DNA from: an uncultured Chloroflexia bacterium
GTDB taxonomy: Bacteria; Chloroflexota; Dehalococcoidia; GIF9; UBA5629
NCBI GenBank assembly: GCA_963775935.1
Contig: CAVZKR010000002.1
Location: 159,687-223,686, forward strand
Direction of reading: 5' to 3'
DNA: 64,000 nt
Position numbers and translations under genes: made by a program. A model generated the notes under the pieces. It was not told the origin of the DNA. It worked only from the letters and a program-made list of their open reading frames with translations, and searched no databases. Positions 22,009 through 62,242 of this stretch are shown here, one piece after another. Numbering within the stretch: position 1 is the stretch's first letter; each line of letters starts with the position of its first letter.

Positions 22009-24258
22009 ATGGCAGCTAATAAGGAATATGATTCGATCCATCGTACCACAGTCTGGTCAGCAGGGGCGGGTTGTCATGGTGGTTGTGGAGTCAAACTCTT
22101 TGTCAAAGACGGCAAAGTAGTCAAGGTTGAGGGTGATGAAAATCACCCCTGGAATCAGGGCAAAAGTTGCCCTCGTCTTCTGGCATTGACTCAGTATATG
22201 TATCATCCCGACCGGGTGACCACACCGCTGAAAAGGGTTGGTGAAAGGGGTGAAGGCAAATGGCAGAAAATTTCTTGGGATGAAGCTTATGATATCGTCG
22301 AGAAGAGGCTAACTGAAATCGGCGAAAAATATGGTAGGAAATCGGTAATCTTCTGCCAGGGCACCGGCAGAGACATCGGCGGTCCCATGTCGTTGCTGGC
22401 GTATTCATATGGCAGCCCGAACTGGGGGCAGATAGGATTATCAGGACAGTCCTGCTATACACCGCGATTGGCAGCTATGTTCGCTGCTTTTGGCGACTAT
22501 GGGGTGGTCGATGCCGGGCAATTCTTTGAAAAGAGATTTAATGACCCACAGTGGAAAGCGCCGAAGTGTCTTGTATTATGGGGACATAACCTGCCTTCAT
22601 CCTGCCCTGACGGTTTCTTCTCTCAGTCATGGCTTATGGAAATTAAAAAACGGGGTGCCAAGGTAATTGTCGTAGACCCCAGGGTCACCTGGATAGCTTC
22701 TAAAGCTGACTATCATCTCCGCATTCGTTCCGGCACCGATGGTGCTTTAGCCCTGGGTATGTTGCACATTATCATCAATGAAGGCTTGTATGATAAAGAG
22801 TTTGTGGAAAAGTGGACCTATGGCTTTGATGAATTAAAGAAACGTGTCCAGGAATTCACACCGGAAAAGGTGGCTGAAATTACCTGGATTCCAAAGGAGC
22901 AGATCATTGGCGCTGCCCGCCTCTATGCCGCCAGCAAGCCGGCGACTATGCAGTGGGGGGTACCGGTTGACATGTGCCCTCAGGGTGATGTGGTGGCGCA
23001 GGCAATTTGTCACCTCTGGTGCATTACCGGCAATCTCGATGTTCCCGGAGGTAATGTGATTGCTCGTTCCTCGCACGGCGTCACTGTCTATCCCATGAGC
23101 ACTGACCAGCTTGTTGTCCTCTATGGTGAGGAATTTGTCAAGAATGTGTTAAAGGAAAAAATTGGCGCAACTGAATATCCTATGGTCAGGGATTATCGGC
23201 ACTGGGTGCAACCTGACCTGGCTTTGACCCAGATGCTCACCGACAAGCCTTATCCCATCAAGGCAGCATGGATACAGACCACCAATATCCTTGGAGGACA
23301 GGCTGCTGACACCAAAGGCCACTATGATGCTTTGAAGAAGATGGAATTTGTTGTTGTGGTTGACCTCTTCCAGAATCCCACCAGTATGGCAGCAGCCGAC
23401 CTCTTCTTACCTGCTGCTACGTTTGCGGAAAAAGACAGTGCCAGGGCATGGTGGGCGCCGCTCAGTGTCACCCCCAAGGCAGTGCAGGTGGGAGAGTGCA
23501 AGAATGACTGGGAAATCAACTTCGAGCTGGCCAAGCGTTTTAATCCTAAAGTTGTACCCTGGAAAAATGTCAAAGAAATGTTCAATGACCGTCTAAAGCC
23601 GTCAGGCTTAACCTTTGAGGAGCTGGTTGCTCGTGGTACCTGGGCGATGCCGCCGGAAGGTCCTACTCGACCTTACCGCCGTTATGAAAAGGGCTTGTTG
23701 CGAGCGGATAAAAAAGCTGGGTTCAATACTCCTACGGGTAAGGTCGAACTGTGGTCGAAACGGTTGGAGGGGTGGGGACTCGATCCCCTGCCATACTATG
23801 AGGAACCGCCGGAAAGCCCGGTGAGAACGCCCGAGCTCTGGAAAGAATATCCTCTCATCATGGGCACCGGGCGTCGCTCGTCTGTGTTTTTCCATGCCGA
23901 GCACCGCATGATTCCCTGGCTCAGAAAACTAGACCCTTACCCAATTGTGGAAATTCATCCTGACGTTGCTAAAAAGCTGGGTATTGATGATGGAGAGTGG
24001 GTCTACGTGGAAAACAAGCGTGGGCGCATCAAGAGAAAGGCGAAGGTTACACCGATTGTCCCAACCTGGATGGTTATGGTGCCCCACGGCTGGTGGCTTC
24101 CCGAAACGCAGGGGGCGGAGCCGAACCTCTTCGGTGTCTGGGATTATAATTGCAATCAGCTGGTTCCTATGGGTTGTCATAGCAAGTCCGGTTACGGCGG
24201 TGGTGCTTATAAGACAATGCTTTGCCGGGTAACCAAGATAAAGGAAGGAGGAAAGTAA
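22009..24258 (+). CDS. cytoplasmic Mo/W-bis-pyranopterin (DMSO-reductase superfamily) oxidoreductase catalytic subunit
   Basis: N-terminal FeS-type segment AGCHGGCGVKLFVKDGKVVKVEGDENHPWNQGKSCPR, a molybdopterin-binding core, and a C-terminal VEIHPDVAKKLGIDDGEWV barrel domain. No Tat/Sec signal. The ATG at 22009 is preceded by GAAAGGAGG. Confidence 0.85.
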   Translation: MAANKEYDSIHRTTVWSAGAGCHGGCGVKLFVKDGKVVKVEGDENHPWNQGKSCPRLLALTQYMYHPDRVTTPLKRVGERGEGKWQKISWDEAYDIVEKRLTEIGEKYGRKSVIFCQGTGRDIGGPMSLLAYSYGSPNWGQIGLSGQSCYTPRLAAMFAAFGDYGVVDAGQFFEKRFNDPQWKAPKCLVLWGHNLPSSCPDGFFSQSWLMEIKKRGAKVIVVDPRVTWIASKADYHLRIRSGTDGALALGMLHIIINEGLYDKEFVEKWTYGFDELKKRVQEFTPEKVAEITWIPKEQIIGAARLYAASKPATMQWGVPVDMCPQGDVVAQAICHLWCITGNLDVPGGNVIARSSHGVTVYPMSTDQLVVLYGEEFVKNVLKEKIGATEYPMVRDYRHWVQPDLALTQMLTDKPYPIKAAWIQTTNILGGQAADTKGHYDALKKMEFVVVVDLFQNPTSMAAADLFLPAATFAEKDSARAWWAPLSVTPKAVQVGECKNDWEINFELAKRFNPKVVPWKNVKEMFNDRLKPSGLTFEELVARGTWAMPPEGPTRPYRRYEKGLLRADKKAGFNTPTGKVELWSKRLEGWGLDPLPYYEEPPESPVRTPELWKEYPLIMGTGRRSSVFFHAEHRMIPWLRKLDPYPIVEIHPDVAKKLGIDDGEWVYVENKRGRIKRKAKVTPIVPTWMVMVPHGWWLPETQGAEPNLFGVWDYNCNQLVPMGCHSKSGYGGGAYKTMLCRVTKIKEGGK

Positions 24259-26506: not shown

Positions 26507-26588
26507 GTCATTGCGAGGAACGCAGTGACGAAGCAATCGCTACGTTATCAATTAGACAAAGAGATTGCTTCGCTTCGCTCGCAATGAC
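26507..26588. repeat. palindromic REP/MITE-like element, full copy (boxA-boxB-loop-boxB'-boxA')
   Basis: GTCATTGCGAGG..GACGAAGCAATC ... GAGATTGCTTCG..CTCGCAATGAC. Confidence 0.85.
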
Positions 26589-44471: not shown

Positions 44472-44484
44472 TTATATTACTCTG

Positions 44485-44620
44485 TCATTGCGAGCGAAGC
44501 GTGGCAATCTCTATGTTTTGCTGAGGGCGATGAGATTGCTTCGTCGCTATCGCTCCTCGCAATGACATGTGGTTTAATGTTCCTCTCAATGATATGGTGG
44601 AAAGGCTCCTCGCAACGACA
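44485..44620. repeat. REP/MITE-like element, full copy (44485-44567) plus two degenerate boxA' repeats at ~27-bp spacing
   Basis: GTCATTGCGAGCGAAGCGTGGCAATCTC ... GAGATTGCTTCGTCGCTATCGCTCCTCGCAATGAC, then CCTCTCAATGAT and CCTCGCAACGAC. Confidence 0.85.
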
Positions 44621-45519: not shown

Positions 45520-45576
45520 GAGATTGCTTCGTCACTGCGCTCCTCGCAATGACAGAGGGGCGCTCCTCGCAATGAC
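45520..45576. repeat. REP/MITE-like half element (boxB'-boxA'-boxA')
   Basis: GAGATTGCTTCGTCACTGCGCTCCTCGCAATGAC AGAGGGGCG CTCCTCGCAATGAC. Confidence 0.8.
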
Positions 45577-46608: not shown

Positions 46609-46642
46609 GAGATTGCTTCGTCACTTCGTTCCTCGCAATGAC
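46609..46642. repeat. REP/MITE-like half element (boxB'-boxA')
   Basis: GAGATTGCTTCGTCACTTCGTTCCTCGCAATGAC. Confidence 0.8.
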
Positions 46643-47592: not shown

Positions 47593-47626
47593 GAGATTGC
47601 TTCGTCGCTGCGCTCCTCGCAATGAC
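47593..47626. repeat. REP/MITE-like half element (boxB'-boxA')
   Basis: GAGATTGCTTCGTCGCTGCGCTCCTCGCAATGAC. Confidence 0.8.
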
Positions 47627-48206: not shown

Positions 48207-48310
48207 GTCATTGCGAGCGTAGCGAAGCAATCTCCGTGTCTAACTGTAAACGTAGAGATTGCTTCGTCACTTCGTTCCTCGCAATGACATGGTTCGTATT
48301 CCTCGCACTA
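48207..48310. repeat. REP/MITE-like element, full copy plus one degenerate boxA'
   Basis: GTCATTGCGAGCGTAGCGAAGCAATCTC ... GAGATTGCTTCGTCACTTCGTTCCTCGCAATGAC, then TTCCTCGCACTA. Confidence 0.85.
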
Positions 48311-51556: not shown

Positions 51557-51706
51557 TGTCATGGCAAGGCACTCCCACCTGTTATTGCGAGGCACTCCCA
51601 CCTGTCATTGCGAGCTGAAGCGAAGCAATCTCTCTGTCTTACTGTCAACGTAACGATTGTTTCGTCGTTACACTCCTCGCAATGACAGAAAAAAACTCGC
51701 CATGAC
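51557..51706. repeat. REP/MITE-like element with a 23-bp tandem array of boxA units, followed by a full palindrome
   Basis: TGTCATGGCAAGGCACTCCCACC / TGTTATTGCGAGGCACTCCCACC / TGTCATTGCGAGC..GAAGCAATCTC ... CGATTGTTTCGTCGTTACACTCCTCGCAATGAC ... CTCGCCATGAC. Confidence 0.85.
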
Positions 51707-57402: not shown

Positions 57403-57437
57403 AAGGGGGTAGCCAAAAGCTACCCCCTTATTTTTTA
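57403..57437 (+). terminator. rho-independent terminator
   Basis: AAGGGGGTAGC-CAAAA-GCTACCCCCTT followed by ATTTTTT. Confidence 0.8.
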
Positions 57438-57442
57438 CCCTC

Positions 57443-57563
57443 TGTCATTGCGATGGGTTAGCCTTATGTCAGAACAATGTAGTGGCCGACCTGAAGGTAC
57501 GCCCCTACAATCACGTGTCATTGCGAGGAGTCCGCCTACGGTCAGACGACGAAGCAATCTCTC
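57443..57563. repeat. REP/MITE-like: degenerate boxA (57443-57455) and a boxA-boxB arm (57517-57563) upstream of the GIY-YIG gene
   Basis: TGTCATTGCGATGG ... GTCATTGCGAGGAGTCCGCCTACGGTCAGACGACGAAGCAATCTCTC. Confidence 0.8.
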
Positions 57564-57615
57564 TACATATCCCTATACAAAGCATGCATGATGCTGCTAC
57601 CATGTAATAACACAC

Positions 57616-57903
57616 ATGAATAAGCAATATTACGTATATATTATGACCAATAAGATAAACACGGTTCTTTATACTGGAGTGACTAATGATGTACAGAGGA
57701 GAGTAGTAGAGCATAAAGAAGGATTAGGAGGGGGATTCAGCAAACGCTATCAGACCAATAAGCTTATCTACTATGAGATGACTAGTAGCATCGAAAGTGC
57801 TATTGCAAGGGAGAAGCAGATTAAAGGTGGTTCGAGGCAGAAGAAGGTAGATTTAATCAATAGTGTTAATAAGGAATGGCGTGATTTATTTTTGGATTGG
57901 TAA
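57616..57903 (+). CDS. GIY-YIG nuclease family protein (small stand-alone, COG2827/UPF0213-like)
   Basis: YYVYIMTNKINTVLYTGVTNDVQRRVVEHK ... AIAREKQIKGGSRQKK, showing the GIY, YIG, Arg and Glu catalytic signature. 95 aa. Confidence 0.85.
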   Translation: MNKQYYVYIMTNKINTVLYTGVTNDVQRRVVEHKEGLGGGFSKRYQTNKLIYYEMTSSIESAIAREKQIKGGSRQKKVDLINSVNKEWRDLFLDW

Positions 57904-57925
57904 AAGGATACTGAAACGAGTGCGC

Positions 57926-58061
57926 AGAGATTGCTTCGTCGCGGAGTTTATACTGAACGAAGTGAATGTGCTCCTCGCAATGACATGGGGAGGCGTTTCT
58001 CGCAATGACGGGAAGGAGAGGGTTCCTTGCAATGAAAGGGGGAGACATTCCTCGCAATGAC
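57926..58061. repeat. REP/MITE-like: boxB'-boxA' arm (57926-57984) followed by three more boxA' units at ~26-27-bp spacing
   Basis: AGAGATTGCTTCGTC...CTCCTCGCAATGAC, then TTCTCGCAATGAC, CCTTGCAATGAA and TCCTCGCAATGAC. Confidence 0.85.
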
Positions 58062-58130
58062 GGGGAAAAGGCTGGATGCCAGTTGACATCATTTGCGGGC
58101 GTCTTTATACTTTTGAGAAGAGGTGTAACT

Positions 58131-59431: not shown

Positions 59432-59523
59432 GTCATTGCGAGCCGAAGCGAAGCAATCTCTCTGCCTACATGTCAAGGAGAGATTGCTTCGTCGTCCACC
59501 CCAGGTGGACTCCTCGCAATGAC
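59432..59523. repeat. REP/MITE-like element, full copy (plus degenerate boxA at 59411)
   Basis: GTCATTGCGAGCCGAAGCGAAGCAATCTCTC ... GAGAGATTGCTTCGTCGTCCACCCCAGGTGGACTCCTCGCAATGAC. Confidence 0.85.
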
Positions 59524-62159: not shown

Positions 62160-62242
62160 GTCATTGCGAGGAACTGTAGTGACGAAGCAATCTCTGCGTT
62201 TATAGATAGACAGAGAGATTGCTTCGCTGCGCTCGCAATGAC
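62160..62242. repeat. REP/MITE-like element, full copy
   Basis: GTCATTGCGAGGAACTGTAGTGACGAAGCAATCTCT ... AGAGATTGCTTCGCTGCGCTCGCAATGAC. Confidence 0.85.

Follow-up and report, generated by a model that had tools for sequence, protein, structure and literature searches.

The most common repeat in the window, by which we mean the whole 64,000-nucleotide (nt) stretch of contig CAVZKR010000002.1 from an uncultured Chloroflexia bacterium (assembly GCA_963775935.1), brackets a small gene for a GIY-YIG nuclease. We consider it probable that this open reading frame (ORF) encodes a single-stranded DNA (ssDNA) endonuclease of the Ssn family and lies between its cognate hairpin repeats, and that the palindromes dispersed through the window are inverted dimers of those hairpins. 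By analogy with characterized relatives, the repeat would then be a hairpin recognized by an ssDNA nuclease of the Ssn type rather than an orphan repetitive extragenic palindromic (REP) element. Systems of this kind are known: Chenal et al. (2025, Nat Commun 16:2388; PMC11893778) described the Ssn family as single-domain GIY-YIG proteins of ~94 amino acids (aa) that cut only ssDNA beside a hairpin repeat (NTS, or Ssn-related motif, SRM), copies of which typically flank the nuclease genes. An earlier sequence-only reading of this DNA had suspected an undescribed GIY-YIG-centred REP system, a judgement that this publication overturns. The locus adds a member whose hairpins belong to a class that escapes the published SRM search string. 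What is new beyond Chenal et al. is the failure of that string in 159/160 related loci, the discrete behaviour of the repeat-gene-repeat cassette, and one orthologous site found both filled and empty.

The place of the window protein in the Ssn clade is suggested by homology. Its 95 residues match the GIY-YIG domain (PF01541, E 5.9e-18, residues 4–77) in a Pfam search, which found no other domain and no transposase. We compared it with the SsnA orthologue of Neisseria gonorrhoeae, standing in for the N. meningitidis sequence, and pairwise BLASTP aligned 91 residues without gaps at 44% identity (E 2e-28). In tblastn the protein matched an N. gonorrhoeae chromosome in PLSDB (E 2e-18, 44% identity), well below the value at which Chenal et al. 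2025 accept SsnA homology (tblastn E < 1e-10). The gonococcal ORF was taken as the SsnA orthologue because it encodes 94 aa, carries Y6, Y17 and E64, and has nine canonical NTS no more than 3.3 kb away. Two N. gonorrhoeae sequences of ~2.17 Mb, NZ_CP119140.1 (our L001) and NZ_CP119142.1, are filed as plasmids in PLSDB and are evidently chromosomes.

SsnA of N. meningitidis (NMB0047/NMV_0044) is a single-domain protein of 94 aa assigned to CDD cd10448 (GIY-YIG_unchar_3), and the substitutions Y6A, Y17A and E64A each abolish its cleavage activity (PMC11893778). These catalytic residues align with Y8, Y19 and E66 of the window protein, which are invariant, together with R29 and H33, in an alignment of 11 sequences. 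Homologues of the window protein are likewise 95 aa long. The public annotation gives 86 aa, starting at Met10, and would drop the first beta-strand with the GIY tyrosine Y8 (57,616–57,642); we favour the 95-aa start at 57,616 because of the homologues and the conserved N-terminus MNKQYYVYI. Some homologues carry C-terminal extensions (several proteins of 105–148 aa), and at one locus (L059, 2492–2848) the reading frame continues into the downstream repeat.

The sequence-only reading had described the repeat as boxA, spacer, boxB, loop, boxB', spacer and boxA', with the nuclease gene in the position of the loop. All box and ORF coordinates were confirmed: boxA (GTCATTGCGAGG) lies at 57,517–57,528, boxB (GACGAAGCAATCTC) at 57,548–57,561, boxB' at 57,927–57,940 and boxA' at 57,973–57,984. 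It had overlooked that each boxA-boxB arm is itself a hairpin unit, consisting of GTC, a 5-nt stem, an interior, the complementary 5 nt and C. It had also overlooked that full copies are asymmetric, that the gene arms are of the long type, and that boxA-only units occur outside the arms. Arms come in two types, a short one of 26 nt (GTCATTGCGAGCGAAGCGAAGCAATC) and a long one of 32 nt (GTCATTGCGAGGAGCGCAGTGACGAAGCAATC). The features at the gene are as follows.

57,444–57,480, plus strand: degenerate extra arm upstream of the cassette (GTCATTGCGATG...GAACAATG)
57,517–57,561, plus strand: upstream arm, SRM-type hairpin unit, GTC-ATTGC-GAGGAG(16-nt insert)CGACGAA-GCAAT-C
57,616–57,903, plus strand: ssn-like gene for a 95-aa single-domain GIY-YIG nuclease, so named from the Pfam match, the SsnA alignment and homologue length
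57,927–57,984, minus strand: downstream arm, long type, with a 29-nt apex insert
57,972–58,065, minus strand: tandem array of 5'-half units (boxA plus ~13 nt), period 25, 3.7 copies

Together the arms and gene form a cassette of 468 bp. Both arms are directed toward the gene, with 54 nt from the end of the upstream arm to the ATG and 23 nt from the stop codon to the downstream arm, and each keeps the 5' GTC and 3' C that are important for SsnA. Both are long-type arms with enlarged apex inserts (16 and 29 nt), which leaves spacers of 19 and 32 nt between boxes A and B. The fixed architecture claimed earlier therefore stands in its box order and fails in its spacers, given as 3–10 nt; for the same reason the gene takes the place of the short loop in box order, not exactly. 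A boxA-only unit occupies 57,444–57,455, and the half-unit array at 57,972–58,065 runs outward from the downstream arm.

The link between gene and repeat extends well beyond the window. We collected 80 related loci by scanning one genome per GTDB species and 80 from a metagenome scan; enrichment was analysed across 164 homologous loci, and layouts were counted in the 139 with at least 250 bp on either side. Arms were detected as GTCA, a 5-nt stem, its complement no more than 48 nt away, and C. The encoded proteins share 55–75% identity with the window protein, and the named genomes span at least eight phyla (Cyanobacteria, Chloroflexota, Ignavibacteriota, Bacteroidota, Desulfobacterota, Firmicutes, Alphaproteobacteria and several candidate phyla). 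Arm density reached 5.76/kb within 250 bp of the gene against 0.1–0.3/kb past 750 bp, an enrichment of ~30-fold, and 114/139 loci had at least one arm. The nearest arms faced inward in 41/139 loci (29%), the commonest layout and that of the window, and outward in 23/139. In the inward class, the upstream arm lay a median of 31 nt before the start codon and the downstream arm a median of 12 nt after the stop codon, which it often abutted. The stem sequence of the arms differs between lineages yet stays adjacent to the gene. The proposal that the gene is bracketed by inverted arms and functionally linked to the repeat, as transposase genes of the REP-associated tyrosine transposase (RAYT) type are to REPs, is supported by this enrichment, by the prevalence of the inward layout and by duplicate cassettes that end at arm termini (below). 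Across homologous genes as a whole, arms often abut or overlap the stop codon (gap of 0–4 nt in many loci).

One related locus (L002; Planktothrix agardhii plasmid p1, NZ_LR882964.1, 17,350–20,622) encodes a homologue 62% identical to the window protein, with whole palindromic elements on either side, built from a sister arm type (GTCATTCTGAGTGAAACGAAGAATC). It lies between an MmeI-type restriction-modification gene and the DISARM gene drmA, and these neighbours place an Ssn-like cassette inside a defence island.

Pairing of the outer stem is supported by covariation. The search pattern left both stem halves free, and 42/44 locus-stem combinations were Watson-Crick, against a mean of 10.3 and a maximum of 21 in 5000 shuffles, across eight stem types (TTGC, TTCT, TCCT, TTCC, CTGC, CTCT, CCCT and CCCC). 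Among 105 short arms, GA...GA surrounds the inner stem in 83, the first inner pair is G-C in 75, A-T in 14 and C-G in 5, and the apex is a GNA triloop in 79 (GAA 37, GCA 21, GTA 14, GGA 7). The GA/GA dinucleotides are probably tandem sheared G.A pairs, and the apex is probably part of a mini-hairpin of the d(GCGNAGC) type. The short-arm data are consistent with a predicted fold of a 5-bp outer stem, tandem G.A pairs and a mini-hairpin. An alternative hairpin in the long arm (GTCATTGCG/CGCAGTGAC, −7.6 kcal/mol) was rejected as the conserved structure because the 3' GAAGNAATC half co-varies with the outer stem (ATTCT and ATTAC lineages) and the inner CGNAGNGAC does not.

Within the 64-kb window the repeat is clearly real, as had been claimed. 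BoxA, allowing one mismatch, occurs 23 times against 0.32 expected, and boxB, allowing two, 15 times against 0.45 expected; no shuffle reached either count. The matches fall into 11 clusters, every one of them between ORFs, and comprise six full palindromic copies and three half copies in addition to the gene arms. Full copies span 82–92 bp and are asymmetric, with one short and one long arm inverted around a loop of ~20 nt; solo copies are exclusively long arms. The loops of the six short elements resemble one another and thus mark one element family. Outside the cassette, the copies are as follows (strand given for solo arms).

26,507–26,588: full element, long arm, loop, short arm, inverted
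44,484–44,619: full element with short and long arm (44,484–44,566), then two extra boxA' half units
45,520–45,576, minus strand: solo long arm (45,520–45,553) with an additional boxA half unit, immediately upstream of a minus-strand gene
46,609–46,642, minus strand: solo long arm ~20 nt upstream of a minus-strand gene start
47,593–47,626, minus strand: solo long arm upstream of a minus-strand gene start
48,207–48,288: full element with short and long arm; ssDNA fold −26.4 kcal/mol, z = −7.0
51,557–51,686: period-23 array of boxA half units (51,557–51,614) running into a full element (51,604–51,686) with a slightly degenerate right arm
59,432–59,523: full element; long arm with an apex hairpin insert, GTCCACC..GGTGGAC
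62,160–62,242: full element with long and short arm; ssDNA fold −26.9 kcal/mol, z = −7.0

All 11 clusters lie in the right-hand 36 kb (26,500–62,300), with none in 1–26,000. The solo arms at 45,520–45,553, 46,609–46,642 and 47,593–47,626 stand in sense orientation 15–30 nt upstream of the ribosome-binding sites of minus-strand genes. The arm preceding the nuclease gene is placed in the same way, in contrast to full elements, which sit 14–80 nt past the 3' ends of genes. These positions hint at an influence on expression or at preferred insertion sites. Searched with Rfam at the gathering cutoff, the window yielded no match; a tRNA/tmRNA scan found none, and a literature search with the repeat sequence returned unrelated primer matches only.

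Half-unit arrays like that beside the gene (GTCATTGCGAGG plus 10–16 nt, period 20–32 nt) also occur in related loci (L002 at 1195–1290 and 1813–1920, L012, L064 and L156). They always run outward, 5' of a complete arm, and their units end just before the 3' stem half; in 9/10 arrays the 3'-most unit is the complete arm. They may have arisen by slippage or through recurrent repair where the nuclease is predicted to cut, 5' of GTC. Upstream of the cassette, directly after a 1269-aa ORF, a GC-rich hairpin followed by a T-run (GGGGGTAGCCAAAAGCTACCCCCTTATTTTTT) at 57,405–57,432 looks like the intrinsic terminator of that ORF, one that a simple terminator scan did not call.

Several observations weigh against reading gene and repeats as an Ssn-type pair. 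In nearest-neighbour DNA folding, full elements are strongly stable (z ~−7), and single arms are no more stable than shuffles (z +0.6 to −2.3), under standard parameters that model neither sheared G.A pairs nor GNA mini-hairpins. The structural case rests on covariation because the thermodynamics of single arms are not significant. The 29-nt apex insert of the downstream gene arm is unstructured, and this arm may be degenerate. Moreover, 25/139 homologous loci (18%) have no detectable arm nearby. Finally, the published SRM string, HGTCWYN(0-2)YYVSBRHN(0-5)WNVSBRGN(0-2)RNCYNB, matched no arm in the window (its one match, at 23,008, is unrelated) and found a site near the gene in 1/160 related loci. 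A stem-defined arm is present in 130/160, and 126 of these 130 follow the pattern GTCA-NNNN-GA. As a search tool derived from 29 genomes, the string does not define SRMs, and the window arms fit the wording of Chenal et al., who describe SRMs as hairpin-forming inverted repeats of 20–50 nt.

In the Neisseria system, SsnA binds the NTS hairpin (CGTCATTCCCGCGMAVGCGGGAATCYRG) only as ssDNA and cuts a few nt upstream, on one strand only; cleavage depends on the three nt 5' of the NTS palindrome, and binding above all on the C directly 3' of it (PMC11893778). By extension, each boxA-spacer-boxB arm would be one cognate recognition unit, an SRM. When single-stranded, it would fold into a 5'-GTC, a 5-bp stem (ATTGC/GCAAT), GA...GA (probably sheared G.A pairs), either a short inner stem closed by a GNA triloop or a variable insert, and a 3' C. 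The protein is predicted to be a Mg-dependent GIY-YIG endonuclease that acts only on ssDNA, as in the Ssn family, binding the hairpin with its 3' C and cutting a few nt 5' of GTC on the GTCAT strand only. The 82–92-bp palindromes, as inverted SRM pairs, would offer one cleavable site per strand. Since the gene arms face inward, cuts would be expected at both outer borders of the 468-bp cassette, on opposite strands. Binding, cleavage and cellular role are thus proposed by analogy for the window protein; candidate roles include cutting motif-bearing ssDNA during uptake, replication or recombination, or driving the spread of the cassette and its repeats.

Comparisons among related loci indicate that the arm-gene-arm unit behaves as a discrete cassette. 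In a Smithella metagenome-assembled genome (MAG; L039), two cassettes lie 1.7 kb apart and are homologous exactly from GTCATT to AATGAC, with unrelated sequence outside; their arms are 97–100% and their genes ~85% identical. Two contigs of a Bacteroidales MAG (L059 and L078) share a 474-bp unit at 99.2% identity that ends on the right exactly at ...ATGACAA and has unrelated flanks. A related genome (L036) is syntenic with L039 over a tetratricopeptide repeat (TPR) gene and uvrB (87–90% nt identity), and at its intergenic site between the two genes the place of the second L039 cassette, of 391 bp, is taken by nothing more than a solo hairpin of 27 nt. The duplicates and the filled/empty site fit the gain or loss of whole cassettes, with direction and mechanism not shown. 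This pair is the one yield of the comparison of orthologous loci with and without the insertion that had been suggested earlier; a metagenome scan with the downstream 422-aa neighbour returned no relatives, and no orthologous empty site was found for the window locus.

A bolder reading, which concerns biological role and is compatible with Ssn-family membership, treats the arm-gene-arm unit as a mobile cassette that is autonomous, or was so until recently. The 82–92-bp palindromes would then be its non-autonomous relatives, comparable to miniature inverted-repeat transposable elements (MITEs) or REP doublets forming hairpins (REPINs). The same nuclease could have spread them by cutting ssDNA at the outer GTC borders, with repair or copying by the host to follow, in a homing-like manner. 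We regard this as possible, though somewhat less likely than its negation. It draws on the Smithella duplicates that end exactly at arm termini, the near-identical Bacteroidales unit in unrelated flanks, the filled and solo-hairpin states of the TPR-gene/uvrB site, the prevalence of inward-facing arms and the likeness of the six short-element loops as one family. The third-codon-position GC content (GC3) of the nuclease gene, 41% against 62–64% in neighbouring genes, also points this way. Yet no strand-transfer activity is known for GIY-YIG enzymes, which are hydrolytic nucleases; target-site duplications were not seen, and inward nearest arms characterize just 29% of loci, with 18% lacking arms. 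The leaders between arm and ATG are not conserved, and the short-element loops show no clear or convincing homology to the cassette interior; the few short words they share with the cassette in the window are too short to test. The Smithella cassettes have diverged by 15%, which makes that duplication old, and the presence/absence difference could reflect loss rather than gain. As for base composition, low gene GC follows host GC and may reflect a protein rich in Lys, Asn, Tyr and Ile.

The compositional data are these: the GC content is 36.5% in the nuclease gene and 49.5% in the window, homologous genes are AT-richer than their flanks in 121/123 loci, and gene GC tracks host GC (r = 0.82), for which reason low GC was rejected as proof of recent transfer. 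The idea that short-element loops are remnants of cassette leaders or trailers was likewise rejected, since leaders vary in length and sequence across 64 cassettes.

Overall, the evidence for nuclease-driven mobility of the cassettes and their short relatives is suggestive, not decisive. The pairing of an autonomous element with MITE copies, as first proposed, retains cassette duplication and one presence/absence polymorphism in its favour and lacks target-site duplication and clear loop homology; we keep it as a working hypothesis. In its most far-reaching form, the system would be a minimal mobile cassette of ~390–470 bp with 82–92-bp derivatives, a nuclease-only counterpart of RAYT/REPIN systems that spreads through ssDNA cleavage at the outer GTC and host copying, occurs in at least eight phyla and uses a hairpin class missed by the SRM string. 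We offer this version tentatively and consider it unlikely as a whole.

Far less plausible is that the repeats are ordinary REP-like intergenic elements (terminators, mRNA stabilizers or host-protein sites) and that the nuclease gene came to lie between two of them by chance. All window copies are intergenic, full elements follow closely on the 3' ends of genes, solo arms closely precede gene starts, and the full elements form very stable hairpins, all as such elements might. Chance juxtaposition, however, is strongly contradicted by a 30-fold enrichment of arms beside the homologues of one gene family in at least eight phyla and by stems that change between lineages while remaining beside the gene. 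A homologous nuclease has also been shown experimentally to bind and cut such hairpins (PMC11893778). A terminator function finds no T-run after the repeat hairpins, and the terminator scan called no terminator-like site there. Equally improbable is that the protein, as a structure-specific repair nuclease like UPF0213/YhbQ or SLX1 or as a free-standing I-TevI-type homing endonuclease, has no sequence-specific tie to the repeat: the closest solved structures are UPF0213 proteins, at weak similarity (1zg2, E 1.1e-6; 1ywl, E 0.009), and the group I intron endonuclease model TIGR01453 matches weakly (E 0.0016), but SsnA is far closer (E 2e-28), the TIGR01453 match covers 31 residues at 18.5 bits against a cutoff of 56, the 95 aa are the nuclease domain alone without a DNA-binding extension, and the association with the repeat is strong.

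An Ssn-type gene with cognate hairpins thus accounts best for the locus, and it has consequences for how such systems are counted and used. A large clade of homologues (55–75% identity) employs a hairpin class nearly invisible to the published string, and censuses based on that string therefore underestimate the association of gene and repeat. Spurious ORFs of the 'HCERSEAIS' type in MAG annotations presumably derive from these repeats. The cassette boundaries, the intragenomic duplicates and the filled/empty site provide material for testing the mobility of Ssn cassettes, and each arm variant with its nuclease is a candidate for a new ssDNA cutter specificity.

Among known systems, the Ssn/SRM system is the nearest. 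Chenal et al. found an SRM, by a degenerate motif, near 71% of homologous genes and on both sides of 42%, likened NTS-ssnA-NTS to an insertion sequence, drew parallels to IS200/IS605 and REP/RAYT, and raised cassette mobility as a hypothesis only (PMC11893778). The window protein shares the single GIY-YIG domain and size (95 vs ~94 aa), the conserved Y, Y and E and 44% identity with the gonococcal orthologue. Its gene is flanked by a hairpin repeat that is also dispersed and intergenic, in the same repeat-gene-repeat order. As in NTS, the arms have a 5' GTC(AT) lead, a palindromic stem beginning with AT and a 3' C. In contrast to the perfect 8-bp stem of NTS, they combine a 5-bp outer stem with GA/GA and a mini-hairpin with a GNA triloop or variable insert, and most window units are inverted dimers of 82–92 bp with a conserved loop between a short arm and a long one. 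Around the gonococcal gene the nearest arms face outward, around the window gene inward. Judging by the nearest homologues, from Dehalococcoidales, Anaerolineales and other Chloroflexota, the window host looks like a Chloroflexota-type MAG and unlike a proteobacterial symbiont.

REP/RAYT systems and REPINs, reportedly described by Nunvar in 2010, Bertels and Rainey in 2011 and Ton-Hoang in 2012, offer the second parallel. Here too, intergenic hairpin repeats are dispersed in inverted, REPIN-like pairs and flank a single-copy gene whose product is predicted to recognize the hairpin as ssDNA, in a relation that looks domesticated or selfish. RAYTs, however, are HUH Y1 transposases (PF01797), whereas the window enzyme is a hydrolytic GIY-YIG nuclease only, for which no strand-transfer chemistry is known, and its repeat begins with GTCAT instead of the GTAG or CGTC heads of REPs. 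With IS200/IS605 elements and MITE pairs the locus shares a compact cassette with inverted hairpin ends, putatively recognized on ssDNA; as in pairs of MITEs and autonomous elements, short gene-less relatives share the cassette ends. Unlike these, the cassette has no transposase and shows no target-site duplication, and its ends are near-identical inverted units, not the distinct left and right hairpins of IS200/IS605.

UPF0213 proteins (Escherichia coli YhbQ, Bacillus halodurans BH0048, PDB 1zg2) are also small stand-alone GIY-YIG proteins of similar length, much further from the window protein than SsnA (E 1e-6 vs 2e-28), and we are aware of no report that connects them with repeats. Homing endonucleases like I-TevI join an N-terminal GIY-YIG domain through a linker to a C-terminal DNA-binding domain and typically belong to an intron or phage context; the window protein, by contrast, is 95 aa without extension, encoded in a chromosomal intergenic setting, and it is the Ssn family that it resembles most closely.

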